Assembly (NCBI GenBank): GCA_963796685.1
Contig: CAWCMR010000010.1
Coordinates: 1 to 64,000, forward strand
DNA from: an uncultured delta proteobacterium
Lineage (GTDB): Bacteria > Myxococcota_A > Polyangia > Fen-1088
Length of the DNA: 64,000 bases
Reading direction: 5' to 3'
Part shown: one piece after another, positions 1-14,200 of the stretch
How the letters are laid out: each line of letters opens with the position of its first letter
How positions within the stretch are numbered: position 1 is the stretch's first letter
Made by a program: the position numbers and the translations under genes
The notes under the pieces: generated by a model
What the model saw: the letters and a program-made list of their open reading frames with translations, nothing else
What the model was told of the DNA's origin: nothing
Database searches by the model: none

Positions 1-56
1 GTTATCCACAGGAATTCCTGATCAATTTCGATCACTTACGCGCTAACCGATCGGCA

Positions 57-296
57 TTGGTACTAGCCCTTCACCCGCGGATCTCAGAGTTCCTGGTGGT
101 CGACTCGTGCCTTGATCGCGGCGGTAGCTATGACTATGCGACGGGCTCCTGCGACCATGCGAAGAACCATCCATATGTTCCCTGGTCCGCGCGTTCACAC
201 GGAGATACTCCCATGTTGCAGGGGTTGGCCTTCGTCGTCGGCGGCGCGTTGGCATTTGTGCTCGGAGGAACGCGAATAGGACGGCATTCCTCCTGA
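57..296 (+). CDS. integron cassette hypothetical membrane protein (frame open to the window start, may be 5'-partial)
   Basis: ORF stops just before attC at 308; C-terminal hydrophobic segment. Confidence 0.55.
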   Translation: MVLALHPRISEFLVVDSCLDRGGSYDYATGSCDHAKNHPYVPWSARSHGDTPMLQGLAFVVGGALAFVLGGTRIGRHSS

Positions 297-307
297 GCGT
301 CGAGGCT

Positions 308-412
308 GCCGAACAAGCCGTTGCAGCGGATGTGGTCGCCGCAGGGACATCGGCGTAGAATCGAGGCGCCGGCTTGGCGGCGCCCACACCGCTGAACGGC
401 AAGGCGTTATCC
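308..412 (+). repeat. attC site (long type)
   Basis: R'' GCCGAAC 308-314, L'' GTTGCAGC pairing with L' GCTGAAC, R' GTTATCC 406-412. Confidence 0.9.
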
Positions 413-419
413 CGACCCT

Positions 420-902
420 ATGAAGCCGCTGATCCTCATCGTTGCTTTCTCCGTCGCCGCAGCGTCTGCGGTCCTTGCGGACGATCGCGGGGCGGCTGGA
501 TCTGTTGAACCGAGCCTTGGTGTGGCTATGGTGTTGAACCTAGTTGAAGCACCGATCGACGTCATCACGTTCCATTCCCGCTCCGCCGTCAGACTCTCTG
601 GGATCTGGAAACCTCGGCTTTCCGATGTGGCGGCCTGTGAACGATCTGCGCAGGACTATTTCAATCCATCGACGAAGCTTCTTCCGCACAAGTTCAAGGC
701 GTACCACCGCCAATACATCGGAATCAAGCGCGGTAAGAGGCGCCTTCTCTATCTGAACGCCTTCTATTCCCATCATGCGCCTGGACCTATTTTCAAGGTG
801 GAATTGGTCAATGCGTATGACGGTGGTGACAACTTCTGGGGGCTCGTTTGTGATCCTCGGAGCGGTCTCATCTCGGAGTTCGAGAAAAACCATGGGATGT
901 GA
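420..902 (+). CDS. cassette-encoded secreted hypothetical protein
   Basis: Signal-peptide-like N-terminus; bounded by complementary GTTATCC / GGATAAC. Confidence 0.8.
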   Translation: MKPLILIVAFSVAAASAVLADDRGAAGSVEPSLGVAMVLNLVEAPIDVITFHSRSAVRLSGIWKPRLSDVAACERSAQDYFNPSTKLLPHKFKAYHRQYIGIKRGKRRLLYLNAFYSHHAPGPIFKVELVNAYDGGDNFWGLVCDPRSGLISEFEKNHGM

Positions 903-910
903 CCTGGGCG

Positions 911-981
911 GGATAACATGCCGTTGAAGCTGTCGATCGGCCGCGGACGGCCGCTCGCAGCTTAACGGCAGGACGTTGGGC
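911..981 (+). repeat. attC site
   Basis: GGATAAC...GTTGAAGC...GCTTAAC...GTTGGGC imperfect palindrome. Confidence 0.9.
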
Positions 982-1023
982 GGACCATCGGGCACCATCT
1001 GGGTCGATCCATTGCAGTAGGAA

Positions 1024-1941
1024 GTGGTAGAGTTCGGCATCCCCGTCATGGCAGATTTCGAGCGGCACTACGGTACAGCCGAAGACCTTTGGGAGGCTCT
1101 CAGCCCGACGCAGAAGCTTTTCCCCGATCCCAGCAAGCTCATCTTCCGCGGTCAGGCAAATGCCTCATGGCAACTGATTCCTGCCGTTCTCCGAGACACC
1201 AACGACGACGAACCAACGGTTCGCGAGGTCATGATGGGGATGGGAACGGCTGACGTCCAGGTCTTCTACGAGAACATGCTTCTCATGGAATTCTGCAGGT
1301 ACTGTGACCAGGTTGGAGTGAGAATTCCTGGAGACTCGATAAAGTTGCGCGAGGCGCTTGACTCACAGAAGAACGATCGATACTTCATTTCCCCGGAATC
1401 GTGGCCAAATCCGGACCTGTTCGAGGTTATGGCCTTTGCACAGCACCATGGGGTTCGAACACGGCTTCTCGACTGGTGCAGGCATCCGTATATTGCAGTC
1501 TACTTTGCGGTGGAATCCGCGCTGAAGTCGTACAGAAAATGGACCACCGACTGGAACCTCGCAATCTGGGTTATCAACATCGAAGGTATCGGCCTCTACA
1601 GCAAGCGTGTGCAGATAGTGAGAACTCCCGGGTCCGTGAGCCCAAATCTGGCCGCCCAGTCTGGCCTATTCACCATCCAGAAGGTGAGCGGCGGTCGTGG
1701 TCAGGCCGTGACGCCGGTAGATCTGAAAGAGGAATTCATGGCGCACGGCTCGAAAGACATCCTGAAGCTGACCGTTCCCGCAATGGAAAGTGTTCGTTTG
1801 TACGACTTCTGCGAGAGGACTGGCGTGAATGCTGCATCGCTCTTTCCTGGCGCAGATGGAGCTGCCCGAGCCGCCCACGACAGTCTTCGTGCGGGGTGCG
1901 CTCGACAATGGATGATCAACAACGGGCATTGGCGGAAATGA
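1024..1941 (+). CDS. FRG domain protein (cassette)
   Basis: Motifs IFRGQANASWQLIP, AQHHGVRTRLLDW, AYFA-like VYFA, NLAAQSGLFT; ATG 1048 is an alternative start. Confidence 0.9.
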   Translation: MVEFGIPVMADFERHYGTAEDLWEALSPTQKLFPDPSKLIFRGQANASWQLIPAVLRDTNDDEPTVREVMMGMGTADVQVFYENMLLMEFCRYCDQVGVRIPGDSIKLREALDSQKNDRYFISPESWPNPDLFEVMAFAQHHGVRTRLLDWCRHPYIAVYFAVESALKSYRKWTTDWNLAIWVINIEGIGLYSKRVQIVRTPGSVSPNLAAQSGLFTIQKVSGGRGQAVTPVDLKEEFMAHGSKDILKLTVPAMESVRLYDFCERTGVNAASLFPGADGAARAAHDSLRAGCARQWMINNGHWRK

Positions 1942-1975
1942 ACATTATGGAAAGTGCACGACTTGCTTGTCGGCC

Positions 1976-2046
1976 GCCCAACAAGCCGTTGAAGCTGTCG
2001 GTCGGCCGCAGACGGCCGCCCGCAGCTTAACGGCAAGGCGTTCGGT
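1976..2046 (+). repeat. attC site
   Basis: GCCCAAC...GTTCGGT; near-copy of the attC at 911. Confidence 0.9.
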
Positions 2047-2172
2047 GGGCGCGCGGGCCAGCTTGGAAATCGCTGGCCGTCGGTGGGTGCGCGGGTCTTC
2101 TCTCGCACGTTGGTCTGGAGGAAGCGGACGACAAAGACCGTGCCGGCGAGGTGCTTCAGATGGCTGGCCGCC

Positions 2173-2339
2173 GCCGAACCGGCCGTTGCAGCGGTCGAGG
2201 GCCTGTCAACTCTCGGTCGACGGTCAACGAGCCGGGGCCGCGCGGCTCATCAGACGAACGAAGGCCGCCGCGCGGCCCCGGCAGTGCTACTATCGATCAG
2301 CCGGGACGGCCCTCGCCGCTGAACGGCACGCCGTTCGAC
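2173..2339 (+). repeat. attC site (very long, 167 bp)
   Basis: GCCGAAC, GTTGCAGCGG/CCGCTGAAC, R' GTTCGAC. Confidence 0.85.
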
Positions 2340-2396
2340 AGTCACGCATCCGGGTGGGTGGAGGTCTGGCTTGGCTCCCGGCAGCTCTAGCAAACA

Positions 2397-2876
2397 TCAG
2401 CGGCCGCCGGGTGTCTGCGTCGCTCTTACCTGGCGGATTCTCGCTTCCAGGTGGCTGATGTGCCAGTCGAGGTGGCGGTAATAGTCGTGCGCCAGGTACT
2501 CCAGGCTCAGTTCCTTGTCACCGACGATCCAGACGTTGCCAAGGCGCGCGGGATCCAAGTTGGAAACCAGGTGCAGCACAAAGGCGTTGTAGGACCGCAG
2601 GAGGTCGAGCATGGTCTTCCAAGCCAGGCCCTCGGGCTTTTCGATGGCGACCCAAGGCTCCGCCTCGTAGGGAGGGAAAACCAGACGCTGGGTGCGCTGC
2701 AGGTGCGTGAAGCGCTGGTGGTTGTTGCTGGCCGAATCAACGAGATGGCAGGCGATCTGCTTGATACTCCAGTCCTCGGCGGAAGGCTTGAGGTCGACCA
2801 GCGACTCGGGCACGGACTCGAACAGCGCCAGCAGGCGCGCAAGTGTGGCTTGAAAGCCAGCGATTGTAATTTCCAT
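2397..2876 (-). CDS. DinB/YfiT-like metal-binding protein (inverted cassette)
   Basis: WSIKQIACHLVDS and YYRHLDWH motifs. Confidence 0.85.
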   Translation of the reverse strand: MEITIAGFQATLARLLALFESVPESLVDLKPSAEDWSIKQIACHLVDSASNNHQRFTHLQRTQRLVFPPYEAEPWVAIEKPEGLAWKTMLDLLRSYNAFVLHLVSNLDPARLGNVWIVGDKELSLEYLAHDYYRHLDWHISHLEARIRQVRATQTPGGR

Positions 2877-2971
2877 GACACGACCCTAGCCCATCAATCG
2901 GCGTTGTAGAAGGACCGATATCGCTGATTGTGGACGAACCGTGAGGAACGCTCGTCGAGGAGAGGAGTGCT

Positions 2972-3075
2972 GTCGAACAAGCCGTTGCAGCGGATGTGGT
3001 CGCCGCGGGGACATCGTGTAGAATCGCGGCGCCAGCTTGGCGGCGCCCACACCGCTGAACGGCACGCCGTTCGAC
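2972..3075 (+). repeat. attC site (same family as 308)
   Basis: GTCGAAC...GTTCGAC; near-identical to 308-412. Confidence 0.9.
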
Positions 3076-3249
3076 GGACGCACCTGGCTCCAGTGCCCAG
3101 TTGTCATTGCTCCTTCGTAGCGGATCGCCCCTCGAAGCGATAGTATCTACGAGCAAGAGCATCAAGACGGTCCTCTCGCTTATGGCCTTCTCAATTCTTG
3201 GCATCTGGGCGTACGGTTGCAGCTCGGTTGAATGCAAGGACCACCCTGG

Positions 3250-3280
3250 GCGCCCGCGGTTGAACGGCAAATCGTTCGGC
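3250..3280 (+). repeat. orphan right half of an attC
   Basis: GCGCCCGCGGTTGAACGGCAAATCGTTCGGC (L'+R') with no upstream R''/L''. Confidence 0.6.
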
Positions 3281-3415
3281 TAATTGTCCGACATGAAAGT
3301 CAAGAATTCCACACCGCAAGTGTCAGCTATCGCACGTCTTCTGTCGGGCTGCCGCCATCTTTCGACGGCATGAAGATGGTTTCGTTCTTGCTATGGAGAT
3401 CCTTCAGCAATTGAG

Positions 3416-3883
3416 GTGACCATGAACCGCACGTCAGAAGAATGCAGACTTGTACCGCTACCACCCTCGTCGATTTGGAAACCCCACTTGGGAATACTGC
3501 TGCTTATTGCCTGCGTTGCCCAGAGTGGATGCCTCGATTACCGCACCTGCACAGGCCGCCACAAAGAGTGCTATGGAAGTAGCCCAAGTGACTTCTGTAC
3601 TAGTCTGAAGGGATGTCAGTGGGTTCCCGGTTGCGGTCCTCCGGGAAACTTCTGTTTCGCCGACGGCTACTCCCGGGCAGATTGCGAAAGTTATCCGTGG
3701 TGTGTATGGTCCGAGAGCAAGTGCTGGGTGCGAGATCCATGTGATCTCAAGACGGACCCGGCCACATGCACTGGAGTGTGTAGGTGGTCGCTGTGTACAG
3801 GCACAGCCAAGCAGTGCAGCGACTATCCCGTTGACGCTTGTCCCGCGAGCGAGGACTGCTATGTCGAAACGAACGGAATCTGA
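3416..3883 (+). CDS. Cys-rich lipoprotein (cassette)
   Basis: Hydrophobic stretch plus QSGC lipobox-like motif; repeated C-x-W disulfide-type modules. Confidence 0.75.
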   Translation: MTMNRTSEECRLVPLPPSSIWKPHLGILLLIACVAQSGCLDYRTCTGRHKECYGSSPSDFCTSLKGCQWVPGCGPPGNFCFADGYSRADCESYPWCVWSESKCWVRDPCDLKTDPATCTGVCRWSLCTGTAKQCSDYPVDACPASEDCYVETNGI

Positions 3884-3921
3884 TGGAAGGTTGAGTCATT
3901 CTCGCCTGTTCCGCGGACGCC

Positions 3922-3987
3922 GTCGAACAAGGCGTTGCACCTGGCAGTCCGCTTCGCGGCCTGCAGGTGAACGCCATACCGTTAGCC
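3922..3987 (+). repeat. attC site
   Basis: GTCGAAC, GTTGCACC/GGTGAAC, GTTAGCC. Confidence 0.9.
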
Positions 3988-4037
3988 GGACGGGAACCTT
4001 TGTCGCATCTGGGTTGTCTCCTGGTTGTCTCCTAGTG

Positions 4038-4436
4038 GTGATTCGACCGATTACCCAGGTGGTTGCCGTGGTGCTCTGCTTGGGCATTACCGTGCCAGCG
4101 GTGCCGGCAGGGAACCGCAGCAGCAGGTTGCGTTGCTTTACAGTGAGCCCTGGCTTGAGGCTCGTAGATCAGGATGTGGAGGACATCATCGCGGCCGTCC
4201 GCCGCAACTCGGGACGTCCAGTTCTCACCATCGAACCGCCGGACTTTAGTGACTACGCCCCCGCGGGCGTGGTTCAGGTCGTCATCTTGACATCGGGGGC
4301 ATGTGACGGCGGCTGCAAGGAGCGCATTTGGATTCGCAAGGGCAAGAGGGGCTGGCGAGTCTTCAAGAAACTTGGCGGGGGCGAGTGCTGGTTCACGATT
4401 GCGTCCGCGACGGCGCGCCGGCTAACAAGCCGTTGA
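4038..4436 (+). CDS. cassette-encoded secreted hypothetical protein
   Basis: Signal-peptide-like start within the cassette; stop codon lies inside the following attC. Confidence 0.65.
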   Translation: MIRPITQVVAVVLCLGITVPAVPAGNRSSRLRCFTVSPGLRLVDQDVEDIIAAVRRNSGRPVLTIEPPDFSDYAPAGVVQVVILTSGACDGGCKERIWIRKGKRGWRVFKKLGGGECWFTIASATARRLTSR

Positions 4437-4439
4437 AGC
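4420..4439 (+). repeat. attC left half (R''+L''), interrupted by IS110
   Basis: GGCTAACAAGCCGTTGAAGC directly abuts the IS end. Confidence 0.85.
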
Positions 4440-4589
4440 GCTCGTACGGAGTGCAAGCAAAAAGAACAGGGAGTGATCGGGCTGCTGAGGGCACACGAGA
4501 TCCGTTCCGCGAGAAGAGAAAGCGGCAATAGGAATCACGTGCGCGGGTCGGGTTGAGCGGGCGAGAGATCCGGAGGCAATCGGCCTGGG

Positions 4590-4926
4590 TAAACGAAACG
4601 CTCCAGTAGGATGTCCGCAGGTCACGGCACCGAGTCAGCTGGCAACGGAAATTGAATCAGGTCGAAGATCCTCAGGGTGCCTCGAAACAGACGCCACTCT
4701 TGCGCAAGGCAGAGATGAGCTTCAACAGAAGGTCACCCGTCGGAGATCTCACACGTTCAAAGCATTCGTTGACTGGGGTTGGTTGCTCCTTTCCTGTAAT
4801 CGGGTCTGACCATGTGGGCAGGTCAGGTCAAAGGTCCGCGGGGTGCCTCGGGACTGACGGCGCTCTTGCGCGAGGCAGAGATACGATTCAACGGAAGGTC
4901 ACCCCTCGGAGATCGGGAATGTTCAA
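4590..4926 (-). ncRNA. putative bridge/seekRNA: two target-binding loops plus one donor-binding loop
   Basis: 104-nt direct repeats 4657-4760 and 4823-4926 carrying attC-matching variable segments; segments at 4634-4640 and 4598-4603 match the IS circle junction; ends of the RNA are uncertain. Confidence 0.75.
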
Positions 4927-4952
4927 CATGGATCGGCCGAAGACCGCCATGG

Positions 4953-6293
4953 CTACGTCGCCACCTGCAAACGACGGATGTCGAAGAGCTTGCTGCTGTC
5001 GAAGGTCCCGCCACGGTCGACGTGGTACAGCGCCTTGGCCAGCTTGCGCATCAGCGCCACCGCGGCCCGCGAGGCGCGGCCACCGTCTCGCTGCTTTTTG
5101 CGCTGGTACCAGGCGTTGGCGATGGGATCCTTCTGAATCCAACGGAAGATGGCGAGCCACAGGAGCTGGCGTATCCGGGACGGGCCGCGTTTGGTGATCT
5201 TGATCTGGCCGTGCATGGTGCCGCTGCTCTTCTCTTTGAGGTTGAGCCCCATGGCCTTCAGAAAGGCGCGCGTGCAGTGGTACGACCTTGCATCGCCAAC
5301 CTCGGCGAAGATAGCGGCAGCAGTGGTGGAACCGACGACTGGGGCAAGCGTGGCGGCGGGCGTGGTGGCGGCGAGCTGTGCGACCTTGGTCTTCGCCGCA
5401 GCGAATGCGCGGTGGGCGTGATAGGCCTCCTCCGCGATGGCCATCAGGGCCTCGCGTTCGAGGCCGATCAGCGGGATGCCGACGGAGGTCTTGGCCGAGG
5501 CGACCACGGCGGCAATCGCGTCCTCCTCAAGGAGCCTGTGACTGATCCCGCGAAGCAGCTTGGTCGCTTGGTCTGGAGCGGCGGCGACATCCGCGGGACC
5601 GCCGATGCGCGCAAGCACAGCCATGAGGCAGGACGAAGTCAAGTCAAGCAGGGCTGGCAACTCCGGCCAGTGGCGAGCCAGCCAGCTCTCCAGGCGATTC
5701 ACGAGCTGCAGGTAGCGCTCCTGGTGGAGATCCATGATGGCCAGGGCCGCCCGGAGCTGCCGGCGTTCTGGAACTTCGTCGGCCAGGCGGCTGGAGAGGC
5801 CGTCGGCGTGCAGCCTGGCGATGATGGCGGCTGACTTGGCGTCGTGAAGACTAGGCACGCCGTCGAAGATTTCCTTGGCATCGTGGGTGCGCTTGCCGCT
5901 GACCATGAACACCGGGAATCCGTCCTTTTCGAGTTGGTGGCGAAGCACATCGCCGTAGGTGCCGGAAGGCTCCATGACGGCTTCGACGGTGACTCCAGCG
6001 GCACGGAAGCCCCGAAGGATGGAGAGTACGCAGGGGTTCTGCTCGGGAGCCTTCCAGCAGATGGTGTGCAGTACGTGCCCGTCGGCAGCGGCCAGGGCCG
6101 CGACCATGTCGACCTTGGCGACATCGATGGCGAAGACCAGCTTGCCGCCCAGGTCGGCGTGCGAAATGGTCTGGGGCTGAAAATCGTTGACGGGCATTCT
6201 GCGATAGATACGCTTCTTCATGATGCGGATGACCTCCTTCGTCGGGTTTTGCGACTTCGACATCTTGGGGCGTCCCCGTCCTTTTTTCTTCAA
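4953..6293 (-). CDS. IS110-family transposase/recombinase
   Basis: RuvC-like AIDVAK, MEPSG and HDAKSA; C-terminal Tnp domain with EKSSG and ITKRG, ALMRKL; true start may be ATG 6263. Confidence 0.92.
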   Translation of the reverse strand: MKKKGRGRPKMSKSQNPTKEVIRIMKKRIYRRMPVNDFQPQTISHADLGGKLVFAIDVAKVDMVAALAAADGHVLHTICWKAPEQNPCVLSILRGFRAAGVTVEAVMEPSGTYGDVLRHQLEKDGFPVFMVSGKRTHDAKEIFDGVPSLHDAKSAAIIARLHADGLSSRLADEVPERRQLRAALAIMDLHQERYLQLVNRLESWLARHWPELPALLDLTSSCLMAVLARIGGPADVAAAPDQATKLLRGISHRLLEEDAIAAVVASAKTSVGIPLIGLEREALMAIAEEAYHAHRAFAAAKTKVAQLAATTPAATLAPVVGSTTAAAIFAEVGDARSYHCTRAFLKAMGLNLKEKSSGTMHGQIKITKRGPSRIRQLLWLAIFRWIQKDPIANAWYQRKKQRDGGRASRAAVALMRKLAKALYHVDRGGTFDSSKLFDIRRLQVAT

Positions 6294-6308
6294 CTACCTT
6301 TAGCTGAC

Positions 6309-6353
6309 TGACGGGCGCTGGCGCGCCCGCGGGTTAACGCCAAGGCGTTGGAC
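6309..6353 (+). repeat. attC right half
   Basis: TGACGGGCGCTGGCGCGCCCGCGGGTTAACGCCAAGGCGTTGGAC. Confidence 0.85.
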
Positions 6354-6718
6354 ATGCAGGACCGCTTGAGGCGGGCGAAGGAGTTCTGGCGGCCACGAAA
6401 CGGCAGCTCTTGGTCGGCGATGCGATGTTGCTGGCGACGATCTCGGTGACTGTCGCGACTGGCTTGGTCACGGCGGTCGCGGTGGGGCATGCAGTTGCCG
6501 CGAACACGTCCGAATCGGCTTCGGCGCCGGCATCTCCTCTCGGGCGGCTGATCTCGCGAACACGATCAGCGAGACGGCAGCGACCGGGTCCTCGGACGCA
6601 GTTAGCGCAGCGATCCCGGCCTCACGACAAACACCATCGGGGTCTTCCGAAAATCGCGAGAACGCAGGACTCAGCCTCGGCCTCGAAGGGCCGCGAAGGC
6701 CAGGTGCGCGGTCCCGAT

Positions 6719-6819
6719 GTCCAACATGCCGTTGCAGCAATCCCGCCGCAGGGACATCGGTGTAGAGTCGAGTGGCCGACTCGGCGGCGGGCTTGCTGCT
6801 GAACGGCAAAGCGTTAGCC
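6719..6819 (+). repeat. attC site (long type)
   Basis: GTCCAAC...GTTAGCC; R'' complementary to GTTGGAC 6347. Confidence 0.9.
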
Positions 6820-6825
6820 GGACAA

Positions 6826-7584
6826 ATGACTATGACCAACTCTGAAAAGATCGTTCGCATCGAGAAATTCCGCGTGCTCGTCCTGCGCTGGAGCCAGTCC
6901 GAGAAGGCAGAGGATCGTTCGAAGATCAATCGGGAGAAGACTTGGATTCGGCAGCAAGTCATTGAGGCGAGGTGCTTCAAGAGCTTGACAATCGGACCAC
7001 CACCGGCGATCGGCGGGCTGGTCCTTGAGGGGGTGGACGCTTTCGAGATGATGTTCAACCCGCCTTGGCACATGAATCTTGTACCTACCGTTGTCGATAT
7101 GCTCGATGCGACCATCGGCGTCCTGACGGCCGAGCCAGAACGCGAAGACGAAGCGCAGAAGGCTCCGAGTATATCGACCTCGACGGTGCCAAACTAAGCG
7201 TTCGTCGCCATGCCGATGGACCGCTCGGATCCAAACCTTGATGATGTGCTGGACGCAATCAAAGAGGCCGGCCATCGCTGCGGTGTTCAAGCAGAGCGGG
7301 TCGACGAACCCGCGACCAACGAACGCGTAACCGACCGCATTCTGGAATCCATCGATCGCGCCGAATTCGTCATCGCGGATCTAACCCACGCGAAGCCCAA
7401 CGTATACTACGAGGCCGGTTATGCTCACGCTCGCGGCAAGACACCAATCTATATCGCACGCGAAGGGACCAATCTGGAGTTCGATCTCAAGGATTATCCA
7501 GTGATCTTCTTCCAAAGCTTGAAACGGTTGAAGGACGACCTCGAAAAGCGGTTGCGCGGCTTGGCGGCGAAGCGTGCCGGCTAA
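6826..7584 (+). pseudogene. nucleoside 2-deoxyribosyltransferase-like (NDT/TIR-like) protein with in-frame TAA at 7195-7197
   Basis: The frame continues after the stop as AFVAMPM...AEFVIADLT..PNVYYEAGYAHA. Confidence 0.75.
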
Positions 7585-7647
7585 CAAGCCGTTGAAGCTC
7601 GGTCGGCCGCAGACGGCCGCCCACCGCTTAACGGCAAGGCGTTGGGC
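7579..7647 (+). repeat. attC site
   Basis: GGCTAAC...GTTGGGC; family of 911/1976. Confidence 0.9.
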
Positions 7648-7657
7648 GGACGACTCG

Positions 7658-7695
7658 GACTAAGCCGTTGACTTAGTCAGCCAATGGCCTATAGT
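7658..7695 (+). promoter_or_regulatory. TA cassette promoter with operator inverted repeat
   Basis: TTGACT 7668-N16-TATAGT 7690; IR GACTAAG/CTTAGTC over the -35. Confidence 0.65.
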
Positions 7696-7701
7696 TAAGC
7701 G

Positions 7702-7998
7702 GTGAAGGTCGTCTGGGATGAAACCAAGAACCTTGCAAACCAGAAGAAGCACGGCGTCTCATTTCAAGAGGCGCGGGTTCTTTTCGACGAGCGACGCGAG
7801 TACCTCGAGATATTCGACGAGGCGCACTCGGACGAAGAGGACCGATTCCTCGCCGTCGGCCCCATCGAAAGGGGCCTCGTTCTCGTCGTGTACACCACGC
7901 GCGACGACGAGGACACCATTCGCATCATCAGCGCGCGTTGGGCGTCGAAACGGGAGAAGGGACTCTTTCGCAACCACATCGAACGGGGTGCACGATGA
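7702..7998 (+). CDS. BrnT family toxin
   Basis: WDETKNLANQKKHGVSF...EDRF...IRIISAR. Confidence 0.9.
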   Translation: MKVVWDETKNLANQKKHGVSFQEARVLFDERREYLEIFDEAHSDEEDRFLAVGPIERGLVLVVYTTRDDEDTIRIISARWASKREKGLFRNHIERGAR

Positions 7999-8285
7999 AC
8001 GATATACCTGAGCTCACGGAGGAGCAGCTCGCGCGAGCGATCTCGAGTCGCATGCGCAAGCGTCTCATCGCCGGGCAAATCGAAGGTGGTGAGGACGTCG
8101 TTGCTTTGAGGCGCTTTGTCGGTCTCTCGCAGTCGCAGTTCGCGCAAGCCATGGGCATCAGCGTCCATACGTTGCGCAACTGGGAGCAAGGCCGCAGGCG
8201 ACCCGAGGGGCCCGCCATCGGTCTGCTGAGGATTGCGGCTCGCCATCCACGGATGATTCGCGAGAACCTGAAGACGGCGGCATGA
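7995..8285 (+). CDS. XRE/HTH antitoxin
   Basis: ATGA overlap with the toxin; LSQSQFA...TLRNWEQGRRRP. Confidence 0.85.
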   Translation: MNDIPELTEEQLARAISSRMRKRLIAGQIEGGEDVVALRRFVGLSQSQFAQAMGISVHTLRNWEQGRRRPEGPAIGLLRIAARHPRMIRENLKTAA

Positions 8286-8299
8286 CCCAAGAGCGCGCC

Positions 8300-8367
8300 G
8301 CCGAACACGGCGTTGCACCCGACGATCGGCCGCAGAAGGCCGCTCGCGGGTGAACGCCAGGGCGTTA
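8300..8367 (+). repeat. attC site with R' box interrupted by ISAzo13
   Basis: GCCGAAC...G-TTA|IS|TTA-GCC; removing the IS restores GTTAGCC. Confidence 0.85.
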
Positions 8368-9695
8368 GGTCTCGCGCGTAAATAAAAGAGCGCATATAGG
8401 GACAATTGCGTATATTGTGCACTCAAAGGGAAGAGTGTCGCAATATGGACGAAGTGGAACGGGTTCGAAAGCTCTTTTGTGATCTGACGCCCATTTTGAA
8501 TGAGCGCCAGATTCGACTGTGGGCCGCAGCGGAAGCAGAATCACTGGGTCGCGGCGGCGTCGCCATCGTCACTCGCGCGACCGGCCTGCGCCACAAGAGA
8601 ATCGTTGCAGGGAAAAGAGATTTGCAGGTGCAGCGGGAGACGCCGCCATTGGCGGCACCATGCGAACAGAGGGTGCGCCGCCCCGGTGCTGGGCGCAAAC
8701 GCATTGAGGATCAGGACCCAGAACTGGTCAAAGCCCTTGAGCGTCTGATCGACCCCGCTACACGAGGAGATCCGGAATCGCCGCTTCGTTGGACAAGCAA
8801 AGGCACGCGGCGCCTCGCTGAAGAACTGACAGCGCAGGGGCACCCGGTCAGCGCAACCAAGGTGCGAGAGCTACTGGTGGATCTGGACTACAGTCTGCAG
8901 GCAAACCACAAGACCAGAGAGGGCAAGCAGGATCCAGACCGAGATGCCCAGTTCGAGTACATCAACCGCCGGGCGAAGGAGTTCCAGTCGAAGGGGCTGC
9001 CTGTAATCTCTGTCGACACCAAAAAGAAGGAGAACCTGGGCGATTTCAAGAACGGAGGCCGCGAATGGGAGCCGAAGGGTTCGCCGGTTCCCGTCCGGGT
9101 TCATGACTTCATTGACAAGGAACTCGGCAAGGCGATTCCGTATGGCGTGTACGACCTCGCAAGGAACGAGGGTTGGGTGAGCGTGGGGATTGACCACGAC
9201 ACCGCCGAGTTTGCAGTGGAAACCATCCGTCGTTGGTGGAAGAGGATGGGCAAGGCAGTGTATCCGGAAGCGGAGGAGCTGCTCATCACTGCGGACGGAG
9301 GTGGCAGCAACGGGGCACGAGTGCGTCTTTGGAAGACAGAACTTCAGGAATTCGCGGACGAGAGCGGATTGCGGATACAAGTAGCGCACTACCCGCCTGG
9401 GACGAGCAAGTGGAACAAGATCGAACACCGGATGTTCTGCCACATCACCGCGAACTGGAGGGGGAGGCCGCTTGAGACTCTCGAAACCGTCGTCAATCTG
9501 ATTGGAGCCACAACGACAAAGCGGGGCCTCCACATCCGCGCCGCCGCCGACCGGAACTCGTACAAAAAGGGAATCAAGGTCGCACACGAGGAGATGGAAG
9601 CCGTCAATCTTCGCCCCGCCCGTTTCAGAGGTGACTGGAACTACACAGTCACGCCGCAATCAGACTAATGCGATCAGTTATTTTCGCGCGAGACC
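8368..9695 (+). mobile_element. ISAzo13-family IS
   Basis: 18-bp TIRs GGTCTCGCGCG(T/A)AAATAA; 3-bp TSD TTA at 8365-8367 and 9696-9698. Confidence 0.92.
8445..9668 (+). CDS. ISAzo13 transposase
   Basis: TRGDPESPLRWTSK, ISVDTKKKE, TADGGGSNG, PGTSKWNKIEHRMF. Confidence 0.93.
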   Translation: MDEVERVRKLFCDLTPILNERQIRLWAAAEAESLGRGGVAIVTRATGLRHKRIVAGKRDLQVQRETPPLAAPCEQRVRRPGAGRKRIEDQDPELVKALERLIDPATRGDPESPLRWTSKGTRRLAEELTAQGHPVSATKVRELLVDLDYSLQANHKTREGKQDPDRDAQFEYINRRAKEFQSKGLPVISVDTKKKENLGDFKNGGREWEPKGSPVPVRVHDFIDKELGKAIPYGVYDLARNEGWVSVGIDHDTAEFAVETIRRWWKRMGKAVYPEAEELLITADGGGSNGARVRLWKTELQEFADESGLRIQVAHYPPGTSKWNKIEHRMFCHITANWRGRPLETLETVVNLIGATTTKRGLHIRAAADRNSYKKGIKVAHEEMEAVNLRPARFRGDWNYTVTPQSD

Positions 9696-10088
9696 TTAGC
9701 CAGACCGAGCGGGACTCTTCTTTGCGCGAAACTTCACCTCGGGCAGGCCTTCAAAGTCGGAATCTTGCGTCCACAAGGTCGCCTCAGATTGTCGTGCGGT
9801 CGCAAGCACAACACTGTCGGCGAGCGCCAGCTTGCTATCGGTTCCGATCTTTGCGGCAATCAATGCCAAGGCCGAGTCAAGGTCCACGACTCGTCCCTGC
9901 TGCATGACCGCCACGGCCTGAAGAGCAGGTCCTTCGCCGCGCTGCTGGCAGACCCGTTTGAAAACCTCCAGGAGGCAGATGGACGGAACTACCAGTTCAT
10001 CCGTGGCCTCTATCGCGGCTGCGAAGAAACTCGCATTGGGTCCGTCCGCAAAATACTCCAGCCAAGCAGAGGAGTCGACGACGTTCAC
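9696..10088 (-). CDS. VapC PIN toxin
   Basis: VVDSSAWLEY...LADS...TQDSDF. Confidence 0.9.
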   Translation of the reverse strand: MNVVDSSAWLEYFADGPNASFFAAAIEATDELVVPSICLLEVFKRVCQQRGEGPALQAVAVMQQGRVVDLDSALALIAAKIGTDSKLALADSVVLATARQSEATLWTQDSDFEGLPEVKFRAKKSPARSG

Positions 10089-10291
10089 ACTCGATCCTTG
10101 TCACGAGGTACTGTGGTGTTGATACCTTTCAAGAACCCACGCATTGCGCGCGGCGATCGGACGGGAATGAACTCGACACGATCGAGGTATTGCAACGCTT
10201 CAACCTTCTGCCCAGGCTTTAGCCCTAAGGTTTCGCGGATTTGCAAAGGTATGACAACCTGGAACTTTGGCGATAGCGTGACCGTAGGCAT
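10085..10291 (-). CDS. AbrB/MazE-type antitoxin
   Basis: LSPKFQVVIPLQIRETLGLKPGQ. Confidence 0.9.
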   Translation of the reverse strand: MPTVTLSPKFQVVIPLQIRETLGLKPGQKVEALQYLDRVEFIPVRSPRAMRGFLKGINTTVPRDKDRV

Positions 10292-10353
10292 TGGCTTCTC
10301 TCCGTACAACGATGTAGTAATCTATAGCATATGCGTTGTACGATTCAAAGGCT

Positions 10354-10405
10354 GGCTAACAAGGCGTTGAATGCGACAGGCGCTGGTGCGCCTGCGCGTT
10401 AACGG
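10354..10405 (+). repeat. attC (R'' to L'), interrupted by a group II intron; the remainder with R' lies at 11365-11377
   Basis: GGCTAAC...GTTAACGG|intron|CAAGGCGTTATGC. Confidence 0.85.
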
Positions 10406-11364
10406 GTGCGCCCAGCATGGACGTCATCTTGGGGGTGCAAGTCCCCCGAAAGGAGACCATCCCAAACGAAGCGAACTGCAACTGCGAAAGGGCGACCAAT
10501 CGTGGGGAGGAAGCAGGGAGCGAAACCGCGGGCGGATGAACAAAAACCGGATAAGAGGCGGCGCCGAGCGGGGCGAGTGTGCCCGTTGCCACGAAGCCTC
10601 GATGGTCAAAGCTCAGGCTACGTAGATCCGGCGGTCGCGCGGGGAAGGAAGACGTTCTTACCTGTGGAGATCTCGCCTTGCGCCTGAAAGGGCGACGCCG
10701 CGCAAGCGGCGGGGCGAGAAGTCAGCAGAGGTCGTAGTAGCGAAGTCGAAGCCGGGGCGGTGAAAAGCCGAGGCTGGAAGTCTTTGGCGAGGCGAAGGAC
10801 CGAACGAGAAGGAGACGCGAACCATCGCGGGAAGGTATGGAAACCCGCCCAGGGTTTCCATATCAGAGAATAGGGGTGAAGCCCCGACGGGAAAGCGGAG
10901 CGAGGAAGCGCCGACGGCGACGCATGAAAACGAGCGCTCGGACGGACAGGCGGACGAAGCATCGAGCAAGTGTGCAAGCGGCTGGGCGAGTACTTGCGCG
11001 GTTGGAAGGAATACTTCCACCTTGCAGAGACGCCCCGCATCTTCGACAACCTTGACCGATGGATTCGCCGACGCCTGCGCGCCCTCCACCTGAAACACTG
11101 GGGACAACAAGCGACCGTCTACCGCGAGCTACGCGCCCGAGGCATGTCGAAGGACGCAGCCATGGTCGTGGCCGTGAACTGTCGCCGGTGGTGGATGAAC
11201 TCGGGTATAATGCTTCATGTGGCACTTCCCAATCGCTACTTCGACCAGCTGGGGGTCCCCCGACTGGCCGCGTAATCTCGACTTCACGAACCGCCCGGTG
11301 CGGACCCGCATGCCGGGTGGTGTGGCAGGGGTCCTTGACGATCTGTCGAGGCCCCTATGCCGAT
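10406..11364 (+). mobile_element. group IIC intron with internally deleted RT ORF
   Basis: 5' GTGCG; domain V GAACCGCCCGGTGCGGACCCGCATGCCGGGTGGTG (~11288) with CGC triad; DVI ending CCTATGCCGAT. Confidence 0.88.
10970..11275 (+). pseudogene. maturase (domain X) remnant of the intron-encoded protein
   Basis: YLRGWKEYF...LDRWIRRRLR...LPNRYFDQLG; no YADD RT core. Confidence 0.85.
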
Positions 11365-11393
11365 CAAGGCGTTATGCGGACCGGTGCTTGGGC

Positions 11394-11422
11394 TTGCATG
11401 TATGTACGATAGTGCATACACT
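11394..11422 (+). promoter_or_regulatory. TA cassette promoter with operator
   Basis: TTGCAT-N17-TACACT; IR TGTATGTAC/GTGCATACA. Confidence 0.6.
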
Positions 11423-11428
11423 TAGGGC

Positions 11429-11694
11429 ATGTCCTATCAGTGGGATCCGGCGAAGGCTCGGGCCAACCGAGCGAAGCACGGCATCAGCTTCGCTGACGCC
11501 GTCGCGGTCTTCGAAGATCCTCGAGCCATCACTCTCGATGACCCTCATCCTGACGAGGATCGCTATGTCACGGTCGGGCTCGATTTTCTCGGTCGAGTGG
11601 TCGTCGTGTGCTGACCTGGCGGGACGAAGAGGTCCGTTTGATCTCGGCCAGGAAAGCGACCAGGGCCGAGCTACGCGAGTATCAGGAGGAGTAG
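11429..11694 (+). pseudogene. BrnT toxin, frameshifted at ~11612
   Basis: WDPAKARANRAKHGISF in one frame, then TWRDEEVRLISARKAT in a shifted frame. Confidence 0.8.
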
Positions 11695-11696
11695 CC

Positions 11697-11984
11697 ATGC
11701 GCAACGAGTACGACTTCAAGAAGGGAAAGCGAGGAGCGGTTCTGCCTGCCCCTACGGGCAAGACGCGGATCACGATTCGTCTCGACGACGACATTCTAGA
11801 ATGGTTCCGGCATCAGGCTGACGCTGCGGGCGGCGGCAACTACCAAAGCATGATCAACGAGGCGCTCCGAACGGTCGCGACCGAAGGGCCTGCCAAGCTT
11901 GAGACGGTTGTCCGCCGGGTAGTCCGCGAGGAACTGAAGCGTGTTGGCGAGCCACGTCGGTCAAGGCGCGCGAAGGCCGCATAA
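11697..11984 (+). CDS. BrnA family antitoxin
   Basis: MRNEYDF...ITIRLDDDILEWFR...YQSMINEAL. Confidence 0.9.
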   Translation: MRNEYDFKKGKRGAVLPAPTGKTRITIRLDDDILEWFRHQADAAGGGNYQSMINEALRTVATEGPAKLETVVRRVVREELKRVGEPRRSRRAKAA

Positions 11985-12046
11985 CATAACCGCGCATTGC
12001 AGCGGACGGCGCTGGCGCGCCGCCGCTGAATGCGCAACCGTTGGGC
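11979..12046 (+). repeat. attC site (ATAAC duplicated at R'')
   Basis: GCATAACATAAC...ATTGCAGC/GCTGAAT...GTTGGGC. Confidence 0.85.
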
Positions 12047-12073
12047 AGACGTCGTCGAGCTCCTGCATGGGGC

Positions 12074-12101
12074 TTGACTGTTCCCCTGATGGGGGTACAC
12101 T
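12074..12101 (+). promoter_or_regulatory. TA cassette promoter
   Basis: TTGACT-N16-TACACT with CCCC-TGAT-GGGG palindrome in the spacer. Confidence 0.6.
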
Positions 12102-12108
12102 CTGGTGT

Positions 12109-12384
12109 GTGCGTGTCGAACTGTCAAGTACCGCGGAGAAACAGCTTGCGAAAATACCTGGGCATATCGTCAGGAAGTTCGCGCTGTGGGTGGACCTTGT
12201 GTCCGTCGAAGGGCTCGCCGCGGCACGCGCGGTCCCGGGATTCCGCGACCACGGCTTGAAGGGCGAATGGCAGGGGTATCGAGCGATTCGGTTGAGCGCA
12301 GCGTACAGAGCAATCTATCAGGAACGTCAGGCCGGGGAGATCCACCTGGTCTATGTCGAGGAGGTGAACAAACATGATTACTAG
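12109..12384 (+). CDS. RelE/YafQ/HigB-like mRNA interferase toxin
   Basis: GFRDHGLKGEWQGYRAIRLS..YRAIY. Confidence 0.85.
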   Translation: MRVELSSTAEKQLAKIPGHIVRKFALWVDLVSVEGLAAARAVPGFRDHGLKGEWQGYRAIRLSAAYRAIYQERQAGEIHLVYVEEVNKHDY

Positions 12385-12703
12385 GAAGGCGAAGCGGAAG
12401 ACTCGGCGAGAGGCGTCGAGGTATCTGGAAACCCTGATGGGCAGCCCGCTGACCCTTGGAGCAGCTCTTTCAGGGTTGCGCGAGGCGGACGAACACAGTT
12501 TGGCCGAGTTCGCGAAGGCTCTCGGAGTTTCGAGGTCACACCTCTGTGACATCGAGCAGGGGCGCCGCGCAGTAAGTCCAGAACGGGCGGCTCGTTTCGC
12601 TCAGGCGCTCGGCCAGAACGAGGCTCAGTTTGTGAGGCTGGCGCTCCAGGACCAAGTCCGAGGCGCCGGGTTGAAGCTGACCGTAGAAGTAAAGGCCGCG
12701 TGA
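12374..12703 (+). CDS. HigA-like XRE antitoxin
   Basis: LAEFAKALGVSRSHLCDIEQGRR. Confidence 0.85.
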   Translation: MITRKAKRKTRREASRYLETLMGSPLTLGAALSGLREADEHSLAEFAKALGVSRSHLCDIEQGRRAVSPERAARFAQALGQNEAQFVRLALQDQVRGAGLKLTVEVKAA

Positions 12704-12710
12704 AGGCGCT

Positions 12711-12781
12711 GCCCAACAAGGCGTTGAACGCGACGGTCGGCCGCGGACGGCCGCCCGCGCGTTAACGCCAAACCGTTCGGC
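12711..12781 (+). repeat. attC site
   Basis: GCCCAAC...GTTCGGC. Confidence 0.9.
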
Positions 12782-12796
12782 AGACGGAGGTCCCAT

Positions 12797-13108
12797 ATGA
12801 GCAACTTGAAAGAAATGGCGGCCAGACGAAAGGAGACGCACGCGAAGCTCCTGGCAGCCAAGTCGCGTGTGTATCAGGCGTTTCTTGAGATGGAGCGCGC
12901 AGCGTATTCGGATGGCGCCCTTTCCAAGAAGCAAAAGGAACTAATCGCCGTCGGGATTTCGGTCGCCACCGATTGCGAATCCTGCATGCAGTGGCACATC
13001 GAGCAGGCTGCCGCAGCGGGTGCCTCGGAACCGGAAGTCCTTGAGGCGGTCGAGGTCGGGATCGAAATGGCAGGCGGTCCTGGCACGGTTTCAGACGGGA
13101 ATCGGTGA
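12797..13108 (+). CDS. carboxymuconolactone decarboxylase/AhpD family protein, probably 3'-truncated
   Basis: KELIAVGISV..DCESCMQWH; no attC follows it. Confidence 0.8.
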   Translation: MSNLKEMAARRKETHAKLLAAKSRVYQAFLEMERAAYSDGALSKKQKELIAVGISVATDCESCMQWHIEQAAAAGASEPEVLEAVEVGIEMAGGPGTVSDGNR

Positions 13109-13111
13109 GGG

Positions 13112-13139
13112 TTGACCCAAGGTTATACCGGGTTATACT
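13112..13139 (+). promoter_or_regulatory. TA promoter with GGTTATAC direct repeats
   Basis: TTGACC-N16-TATACT. Confidence 0.65.
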
Positions 13140-13145
13140 TCAGGT

Positions 13146-13382
13146 ATGAAGACGGCAGTTTCCATCCCGGACGAGATATTTGAGCGGGCTGAGACCCTTG
13201 CGCACCGGGCGAAGCGCTCGAGGAGCGAGGTCTATTCGTGCGCACTCAGCGAGTACGTGGCGCGCCACTCGCCGGACAGTGTCACGGAGGCGATGAACCG
13301 TGTTCTCGAAGACGTGAAGGAGCCGGCCGATGGATTTGCGTCGCGTGCTGCCCGGCGCACGCTGGAGCGTAGCGAGTGGTGA
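13146..13382 (+). CDS. ribbon-helix-helix antitoxin
   Basis: MKTAVSIPDEIF...SRSEVY; translationally coupled to the MazF gene. Confidence 0.85.
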   Translation: MKTAVSIPDEIFERAETLAHRAKRSRSEVYSCALSEYVARHSPDSVTEAMNRVLEDVKEPADGFASRAARRTLERSEW

Positions 13383-13723
13383 CCGTCTCTCAGGGAGAGG
13401 TGTGGTGGGCGGATCTCGGCGAGCCACGCGGATCGAAGCCAGGATTCCGACGGCCAGTATTGGTCATACAGGGTGATGCTTTGAATCGGAGTCGAATCGC
13501 GACCGCCGTTTGCGTTGCCTTGACCAGCAACGTGAAGTGGGCTTCTGCCCCGGGCAACGTTCTTCTTTCTGAGAGCGCGACCGGGCTGCCCAAGGAATCG
13601 GTGGCGAACGTCTCGCAGATTGTGACTCTCGACAAGTCCGAGTTGACTACTCGGGTGGGCAAGCTGCCCAAGACGAAACTGGAGCTTGTACTGTCTGGAG
13701 TGGATGTAGTGCTTGGACGGTAA
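13376..13723 (+). CDS. MazF/PemK toxin
   Basis: QGEVWWADL...RRPVLVIQ...SQIVTLDK. Confidence 0.92.
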   Translation: MVTVSQGEVWWADLGEPRGSKPGFRRPVLVIQGDALNRSRIATAVCVALTSNVKWASAPGNVLLSESATGLPKESVANVSQIVTLDKSELTTRVGKLPKTKLELVLSGVDVVLGR

Positions 13724-13729
13724 GCCGCC

Positions 13730-13749
13730 GTCGAACAAGCCGATGAAGC
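13730..13749 (+). repeat. orphan left half of an attC
   Basis: GTCGAACAAGCCGATGAAGC, then no L'/R'. Confidence 0.7.
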
Positions 13750-13750
13750 T

Positions 13751-13940
13751 CTCGTAGATGAGGAGGGCACGCTGTACCGATAATGAGGACAGGTTTGTGC
13801 TTCTCGGACTCAGCGGGCAGCTGCGAACGCTGGTGGTCTGTCACCGCTACCGTCAGCAGGACGATGTCATCCGCATCATCTCGGCGCGCAAGGCGAATTC
13901 CTTCGAGCGCGGGCAGTACGAGGATCGGAGAATGAGATGA
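13751..13940 (+). pseudogene. 5'-truncated BrnT toxin
   Basis: EDRFVLLGLS...VIRIISARKA; the N-terminal WD..KHG part is absent. Confidence 0.8.
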
Positions 13941-14200
13941 GGAAGAACTACGACTTTTCGAGGGCAGTCCGGAATCCCTACGCTCGGCGGCTCAAGCGCC
14001 AGCTCACAATTCGTCTGGACGAGGACACCATCGACTACTTCCAGGGCCTGTCGCGTGAGATGTCGCTGCCGTACCAGACGCTCATAAATATGTACCTGCG
14101 CGACTGCGCCGAGACTGGGAAGCGTCCTCATTGGTCCGTGCCTTCGCCCCCGAAGCGGGCGATGAAGCGGAGGGGCTTCGCCCGCCGCCTATCGGCATAG
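13937..14200 (+). CDS. BrnA family antitoxin
   Basis: MRKNYDFS...TIRLDEDTIDYF...PYQTLINMYL; reads through the attC. Confidence 0.88.
   Translation: MRKNYDFSRAVRNPYARRLKRQLTIRLDEDTIDYFQGLSREMSLPYQTLINMYLRDCAETGKRPHWSVPSPPKRAMKRRGFARRLSA

Follow-up and report, generated by a model that had tools for sequence, protein, structure and literature searches.

The window analysed here is a stretch of 64,000 nucleotides from an uncultured delta proteobacterium of the Myxococcota (GenBank assembly GCA_963796685.1, contig CAWCMR010000010.1, positions 1 to 64,000 of the forward strand). Close to its start, an integron attC site in a cassette array is interrupted by an insertion sequence of 1869 bp (4441-6309, minus strand) with a gene for an IS110-family transposase and a long non-coding 3' end. 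That end holds two tandem repeats, A and B, and a third structure, D. The repeats are candidate target-binding loops (TBLs) of a guide RNA, and D is likely its donor-binding loop. Comparison with relatives of the element reveals that the arm of the first repeat unit follows the sites where the elements have inserted, whereas the arm of the last unit does not.

The open reading frame (ORF; 4953-6293, minus strand) encodes a DEDD transposase of 446 amino acids from its first start codon, a TTG. The true start may be a later Met codon, and the last plausible one would give 414 amino acids. The ORF product contains two IS110-family transposase domains, PF02371 (5e-15) and PF01548 (3.3e-9), both above the Pfam cut-offs, in agreement with a first-pass annotation that a model had made from the sequence alone. 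Against the NCBIfam model NF033542 ('IS110 family RNA-guided transposase') the transposase scored 121.8 bits, where the curated cut-off is 140. From the stop codon (4953) to the end of the element (4441) there are 512 nt of non-coding DNA, and approximately 16 nt lie upstream of the ORF.

The boundaries were placed from nine left-end and 11 right-end junctions, from further junctions, and from uninterrupted paralogous attC sites. On the transposase strand, the first end of the element is AGTCAGCT (window 6309) and the last is CCGTACGAG (window 4441); the element starts AGTCAGCTAAAGG, and both ends are conserved in relatives while the flanks vary. The left end of the window element, aligned with those of eight related loci, begins (T)CAGTCAGCTAAAGG after unrelated flanks. 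Locus L029 has A in place of T before CAGTCAGC, so that base belongs to the flank. At the right end, the window and 10 related loci read ..TACGAG followed by (C/A/G)G(C/G)T(G/T)CAA(C/T)GG. Intact attC sites in the same genome read ..CCGTC|AGCTGCAACGG, ..CCCGTC|GCGTTCAACGCC and ..ACATC|CGCTGCAACGG, giving an uninterrupted pattern of ..GTC|NGCTKCAACGG, and an intact paralogous attC on contig C25 reads GCGCCCGTC|GCGTTCAACGCC. The junction alignments and the intact sites together set the element at 4441-6309, between ..GCGCCCGTC and CGCTTCAACGG. The right-end-side half of the split attC occupies 4412-4440, of which 4430-4440 (CCGTTGAAGCG) pairs with the 5' arms of the repeats. The other half (6310-6367) ends, on the transposase strand, in ..GCGCCCGTC adjoining the element. 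Insertion was site-specific and without target duplication: the flanks join to the intact-attC pattern with nothing repeated. The first-pass annotation had named attC sites as the target, which holds, but its letters were off by 1-2 nt; the plus strand reads CCGTTGAAGCG|GACGGG, not CCGTTGAAGC|TGACGG.

The host genome offers many such sites. It contains 70 unoccupied attC-end motifs; a strict count gives 59, with 10 of them in the first 14 kb of the window's contig. Three integron integrases score above the curated cut-off in this genome (on C9, C22 and C6), and none does so on the window's contig. Large cassette arrays were seen at window positions 1-14000 and on contigs C2, C8, C22 and C25. 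A look-alike, CTACGAG|AGCTTCATCGG, at window 13740 was rejected, since it belongs to the end of a cassette ORF and marks no further element.

Two ungapped repeats of 104 nt had been reported in the non-coding end, A at 4657-4760 and B at 4823-4926 (both minus strand). A repeat search recovered them as one family, 81% identical and 166 nt apart, and a blastn self-match gave E = 2.9e-20. On the transposase strand each repeat consists of an outer stem GGGUG-A-CCUU, a 5' arm, an inner hairpin CUCUGC..GCAAGAG, a 3' arm, and a closing stem GAGG-CACCC. The outer stem and inner hairpin are kept in both copies, as seen in the sequence and in minimum-energy folds, and the loop strings quoted earlier for A (CTGTTGAAGCTCA and TGGCGTCTGTTTC) and for B (CCGTTGAATCGTA and CGCCGTCAGTCCC) are all present on the transposase strand. 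In B, the transposase-proximal module (112.6 bits against a covariance model), the 5' arm lies at 4884-4894 (CCGTTGAATCG) and the 3' arm at 4852-4862 (CGCCGTC plus AGTC). In A, the module next to D (114.6 bits), the corresponding arms lie at 4718-4728 (CTGTTGAAGCT) and 4684-4695. The 5' arm of B agrees at 10 of 11 positions with the right flank read as its reverse complement, and that of A fits this site at nine of 11; with wobble pairs allowed (rU-dG, rG-dT), both reach 10 of 11. In the 3' arm of B, CGCCGTC-AGTC, the bases that close the left flank (CCGTC) recur, followed by the element's first four. The arm complementary to the top strand lies 5' of the arm complementary to the bottom strand, which is the rule for IS1111 elements (PMC11187229). 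The non-coding end, in the order TBL (B), TBL (A), donor loop, is best understood as a duplicated TBL ahead of a donor loop, conserved across the clade. A was also considered as a donor or right-junction loop and rejected, as its arms match neither. The sequence GTTGAAG in the left end resembles the arm of A; it stays unchanged when the arm of A varies in relatives.

Relatives were collected from a scan of species-representative genomes, which gave 11 loci in metagenome-assembled genomes of Myxococcota, from a search of 401 genomes of the class, nine of which encode the protein, from a metagenome scan, which gave 80 loci, and from the window's own genome, with its second copy on C25. A covariance model was built from 91 distinct modules; in the window's genome it finds exactly four, two in the window and two in a truncated copy on C25. 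Modules were counted on 59 related loci with a complete 3' end, without deduplication: 46 carry two modules, 12 carry one, and a single locus (L007) carries three. One module together with a homologue of D is found in L075 and L077 (61-62% identity), L070-L072 (69-72%), G079 (43%) and G399 (39%). The protein tree has 38 rows, of which 25 form a clade that is wholly two-module (support 95/95); among the one-module rows are the outgroup and the tree's unresolved base, which indicates that one module is the ancestral state. In the one-module elements, the only module has flanks in common with the module adjacent to D, which makes A the ancestral module, orthologous to theirs, and B the added one. 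It seems that the single TBL was duplicated at the base of the clade and that the count now ranges from one to three. The single-unit elements L092 and L103 resemble fusions of a first and a last module. In L009 the first arm has changed from GCA, as in its sisters L005, L008, L011 and L013, to GAA, as in its own second arm, and its site is still TGCAAC; in L085 both arms are identical. Both cases look like conversion between the two modules.

The fit of each unit to the occupied site was compared with the fit after sites were shuffled among elements, using 33 deduplicated multi-unit elements (two or three modules) and seven one-module elements. Rows with identical guide and site were collapsed (53 to 40), and L006 was dropped for its odd flank. 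The first unit matched its own site at a mean of 8.85 of 11 positions, compared to 8.28 for shuffled sites, a value as high being reached in none of 20000 shuffles. The last unit reached a mean of 8.06, compared to 8.18 when shuffled, and 18957 of 20000 shuffles were as high. The sole unit of the one-module elements reached 8.71, compared to 7.75 (343 of 20000 as high), and the A-type module appears to be a competent TBL in these elements. Allowing wobble pairs did not alter the pattern: the first unit scored 9.39 versus 8.83 (0 of 20000), and for the last unit 19171 of 20000 shuffles were as high. The first unit is the better-fitting one in 22 of the 33 elements and a later unit in four (L037, 8 versus 10; L041, 6 versus 9; L083, 8 versus 9; L108, 7 versus 10), with seven ties. 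With wobble, later units are better in seven, with nine ties. The first-pass annotation had proposed one donor loop with two differently programmed target loops whose guides would covary with insertion sites. The layout stands and the covariation is found for the first unit, but a choice of sites by A is not borne out.

Closely related copies display the same covariation. A second copy in the window's genome (C25:1871946-1872792, L002) lies in another attC. It is 5'-truncated, retains the last ~100 transposase codons and the whole non-coding end, and is 94-95% identical to the window element, most of the differences lying in the guide arms. It is chiefly the arms of B that set the two copies apart, and their flanks differ alike: GTTGAA stands by TTCAAC and GTTGCA by TGCAAC, the window copy having CCGTTGAATCG by the flank CCGTTGAAGCG and the C25 copy CAGTTGCAGCG by CCGTTGCAGCG. 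L036 and L040, with near-identical transposases, have GCA and GAA arms in TGCAAC and TTCAAC sites, respectively. In G353, all three distinct sites are of the TTCAAC type and fit the first arm, and TGCAAC dominates the attC motifs listed there.

The stems of both module classes are strongly conserved, with an entropy of 0.06-0.22 bits compared to 0.85-1.26 bits in the flanks. For the last unit, represented by 50 distinct sequences, the stems have 0.06-0.14 bits and the flanks 0.85 bits, and its unpaired GTTG core is invariant save for one column at 0.1 bit. Columns in which attC sites differ from one another are variable in the arm of the last unit, too. A looks maintained as an attC-compatible loop, to judge from this conservation, even if the positions at which it varies do not track the sites in use. 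A covariation alignment of homologues, suggested in the first-pass annotation, was informative once distant relatives were included. Within the close clade 94.7% of cells pair. In an alignment of nine modules in all, with distant relatives of 39-62% identity among them, 95.2% of cells pair and 12 of 19 base pairs change on both sides, a result reached by none of 500 shuffles; slid controls gave at most two such pairs.

The third loop, D (4585-4650, minus strand), contains AGCTGACT (4633-4640, reverse complement) and GGAGCG (in the 4599-4610 region). The first 8 nt of the element recur in the 5' arm of D as their reverse complement, AGCUGACU (4633-4640). The 3' arm, ..CCUAC UG GAG CG (4599-4610), holds the element's last bases and the first 2 nt of the flank; the GAGCG corresponds to the last 3 nt of the right end plus these two, and the circle junction is not matched. 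Both arms had been recognised before and do fit the element's ends; the junction then predicted, AGCTGAC|GCTC, is not the one expected, as the two ends, once joined, would give AGCTGACT|CTCGTA. The homologous loop in relatives of 39-43% identity changes with their ends. In the window clade, AGCUGACU stands opposite AGTCAGCT and the 3' arm reads GAG|CG; in the L012 clade the 3' arm reads GAG|AG, and all six flanks shown start with AG. In G399 the 5' arm GCCGAC stands opposite GTCGGC and the 3' arm reads GAC|AG, and in G079 these are AGCUGA opposite TCAGCT and TGAG|AGC. It is likely, from this agreement with the element's own ends, that D is the donor-binding loop. A CCAG/CUGG stem proposed in D from a fold was rejected, since a C-to-A change in the G345 lineage is uncompensated.

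On balance, and with moderate confidence, we favour the reading that this is an RNA-guided IS110-family element of IS1111-like layout, in which B would be the site selector and A a constrained ancestral loop. The anatomy of the array, its conservation, the covariation of its RNA fold and that of B with its sites are directly supported by the alignments. In the proposed mechanism, a guide RNA encoded downstream of the transposase would direct this Myxococcota lineage to one end of integron attC sites, and would carry in a row, at the 3' non-coding end, TBL-B, TBL-A and the donor-binding loop D. The 5' arm of a TBL would pair with ~11 nt immediately to the right of the crossover on the transposase-sense strand (NGCTKCAACGG). 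Its 3' arm would repeat the last nucleotides to the left of the crossover (..CGTC) and then make a 4-nt handshake (AGTC) with the bases that open the element. The 5' arm of D would pair with the element's first 8 nt, and its 3' arm would repeat the element's last nucleotides together with the 2 nt that begin the flank. Where an element has two modules, the added one, proximal to the transposase, would be the working site selector. A would be kept under selection as a folded attC-compatible loop, and its role would be no more than that of a minor or generalist guide, or of a structural component in a long RNA. Transcription and processing of the RNA, its binding by the recombinase, a circle junction, and any activity of A are expected in this scheme from sequence.

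Several results weigh against this reading. The last unit scores slightly below its shuffled mean, and the argument that A would be kept under selection as a guide is one from conservation. The 3' arms fit the left flank weakly (first unit, 4.65 versus 4.46, with 783 of 20000 shuffles as high). The stems of the close clade are near-invariant, with only one of 19 pairs changed on both sides, and the alignment that displays compensation was fitted to the model and so leans towards structure. Fold-energy z-scores are ordinary, at -0.63 for B, -0.60 for A, +0.30 for the third loop and +1.05 for the whole end; as none of these folds better than its shuffles, the argument for structure is a comparative one. 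A search of positions 3800-7000 gave no Rfam match at E up to 1. The 5' arm of D has one or two mismatches in G353 (AGCTGAAT) and L006 (AGTTGAAT), in which the left end is unchanged. Unlike in IS621, the junctions fit no shared core dinucleotide: AG, TC, CG and a single C were tried, and none fits both junctions and the uninterrupted attC. Expression, too, is deduced from the sequence.

The strongest alternative is that both loops are working guides of comparable standing, forming a two-guide array that reaches two attC variants. Both modules are folded, conserved and variable at the same loop columns; a later unit fits strictly better in the few elements named above; A equals B at the window site once wobble is allowed; and the A-type module guides the single-unit relatives. 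Of the 70 free attC ends in the host genome, B matches 24 at nine or more of 11 positions, A 19, and either of them 36. The insertion sites themselves speak otherwise. The last unit lacks covariation with them, and in the nine elements where the first unit fits poorly, the last unit does not take over, its mean being 8.00 compared to 8.44 at random sites. All five G345 copies lie in TGCAAC sites that fit the first unit, despite five TTCAAC motifs listed in that genome. In G353 the last-unit arm, GTTGTGGC, which like GTTGAGGC and GTTCAAGC is a rare one, has no matching attC in the host, where the pattern has one match, as does the reversed control. An array of two equal guides is therefore doubtful, and as only the first loop tracks sites, it should not be taken for granted. 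The lack of covariation and the G353 arm without a host target would be expected if A were an inert leftover of the duplication, kept by its youth or as a spacer between B and D and with no role of its own. Such a leftover would also agree with the damaged 5' stem of the copy of A in L004 (76.4 bits versus ~112) and the occurrence of single-unit derivatives (L092 and L103). It is unlikely, given that the two-unit state persists across a clade with transposases down to ~80% identity and that the stems and GTTG core of A are far more conserved than its flanks.

Two further proposals fare worse. The two TBLs could act jointly on two attC sites, so that target-target recombination would delete, invert or shuffle cassettes. 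Both loops are compatible with attC, and a 2026 review, in the part available, names target-target recombination among the unintended reactions of bridge systems. No rearranged cassette junctions came to light in an analysis that did not search for them, elements with one TBL have spread equally well, and a joint action is highly improbable. Less probable still is that the repeats function as DNA, as transposase-binding or terminator sites, instead of as RNA guides. This would account for the ordinary folding energy and for stems that in the close clade are conserved by sequence and not by compensation. It would leave unexplained the 12 of 19 pairs that compensate when distant relatives are added, the covariation of loop arms with flanking DNA, and a layout equal to that described for seekRNA and bridge-RNA loops. 

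A bolder reading is that the clade has made of the single target loop a small modular array of one to three loops, which grows, shrinks and exchanges arms by unequal recombination and by conversion between modules, as L009 and L085 seem to illustrate. With a specialist first loop and an ancestral loop that is a near-consensus attC guide, one element could reach several attC variants or switch target by arm copying. This would be a natural multiplexed RNA-guided recombinase, and we offer it as a tentative possibility.

Guide-RNA loops and attC-targeting insertion sequences are both known; what appears to be new is the presence of two or three target loops ahead of one donor loop. Elements of the IS1111 type that target attC, with their seekRNAs, have been described (ISKpn4, ISPst6 and ISPa25; Siddiquee et al. 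2024, PMC11187229). As far as the available text of that paper goes, they share with the present element a DEDD transposase, a guide RNA just downstream of the transposase gene, the arm order, and insertion at one end of attC without target duplication. Their seekRNAs have one target loop; here there are two (one to three across relatives) and a recognisable, distinct donor loop. The same text gives 330-350 amino acids for IS1111 transposases, compared to 414-446 here, outside that length range. IS1111 elements have subterminal inverted repeats of 7-17 bp; a candidate pair in the present element is described below. The separation from ISKpn4 and ISPst6 is drawn from their descriptions and not from sequence alignment. 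Among IS110-family proteins on PLSDB plasmids, none has at least 30% identity to the transposase and none matches it at 80% coverage. On these grounds, identity below 30% and a length outside the IS1111 range, the element is filed as IS110-family with an IS1111-like layout and not in the IS1111-attC group. That group, the subject of work by Tetu and Holmes (2008) and Post and Hall (2009), reportedly targets attC and has transposases close to those of ISPa21, ISPst6 or ISKpn4. The lineage described here is apparently a second, independent group of attC-hunting insertion sequences.

In the bridge RNAs of IS621 and other IS110 elements there is a single loop for the target and a single loop for the donor (Durrant et al. 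2024, PMC11208160). In the accessible parts of the accounts of these systems (PMC11208160, PMC13626964), the target and donor internal loops and the arms that read opposite strands around the crossover are alike, and the extra four bases of the 3' arm of B are similar to the handshake guides described for IS621 (Hiraizumi et al. 2026, PMC13626964). The RNA here, unlike theirs, lies at the right end and not the left, has the reverse arm order, and has the target loop twice. A phmmer search of Protein Data Bank chains gave no match to the transposase. Durrant et al. (PMC11208160) describe, in the text at hand, multi-loop donor-binding structures in IS1111 orthologues and not doubled target loops. 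A precedent for repetition is a preprint (bioRxiv 10.64898/2026.08.14.744561) with 468 cases in which repeat units of non-coding DNA stand in tandem beside IS110 transposases, head to tail and adjoining the gene as here. That study required at least 95% identity and reads the repeats as local expansion by half-matched recombination; its main text, figures and supplements apart, does not describe them as guide loops with different arms. The copies here, set against those repeats as portrayed in that text, are 81% alike, old, clade-conserved, and differ mainly in the guide columns. CazIS110-1 (bioRxiv 10.1101/2025.10.25.684509) also has a second source of TBL beside an RNA with TBL and donor-binding loop; as that preprint's available text has it, a single locus yields this second source in truncated form and with the guide unaltered, whereas the loop described here would be encoded in addition to the first and have a guide of its own. 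A literature check for multi-loop IS110 elements, another suggestion of the first-pass annotation, thus turned up tandem non-coding repeats in one 2026 preprint and no description of a bridge or seek RNA with several TBLs in the text searched, which did not extend to figures and supplements. The 2026 review contains none of the terms 'tandem', 'duplicat', 'attC' or 'array', and a search combining IS110, attC and Myxococc returned only one unrelated preprint.

A lineage that keeps two or three target loops with one donor loop would indicate that the architecture of bridge and seek RNAs is modular in nature. Dozens of natural variants with known landing sites provide a test bed for alternative target loops from one transcript, and a recombinase loaded with alternative target loops would be of direct interest for multiplexed bridge editing. 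That an attC-hunting lineage occurs in Myxococcota of soil and wetland, in their large chromosomal integrons, also bears on how cassette arrays are disrupted and reshaped.

Other features of the element concern its ends. A possible subterminal inverted repeat pairs 4450-4472 with 6273-6295 (23 nt, 78% complementary) and is one of 35 pairs of similar quality in the element. A -10-like TAAAGG (6297-6302, minus strand) would stand 17 nt from a -35-like TTGCAC (4451-4456) if the ends abut in a circle, so that a TTGCAC-17-TAAAGG arrangement, read by eye, may form at the joined ends. Neither a circle junction nor an empty-site joint was found in four sequencing runs, all of which consist of assembled contigs. 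Contigs from three wetland metatranscriptome libraries (X15, X16 and X19), compared with window 4441-4803, cover relatives that are 85-95% alike, including the non-coding end; some extend into attC flanks, and they are not proof of transcription.

Some junctions depart from the usual form. In L006 (the same as L018), the only case with target duplication, a 12-nt repeat of the left flank, CGTCCGACCGTC, stands on both sides of the element, and a complete target follows the right end. At the right end of L002, L106 and L113 the last 4 nt are repeated before the attC flank (an extra CGAG), and in L038 the last 8 nt (an extra CGTACGAG); these repeats may reflect slippage or an offset second strand exchange. 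The distant relative G399 (L022, L027, L031 and L034; 39% identity) is present in four copies in a complete genome. Its insertion site is a conserved GC-rich repeat (..CAGCAGCCCGCG|AGCACCCCGG..) and not attC, and its one target loop matches that site. Finally, a 223-nt fragment in the window's genome (C9:49462-49684, L003) has 84% identity with the central part of the transposase gene and is probably a remnant of a related element.

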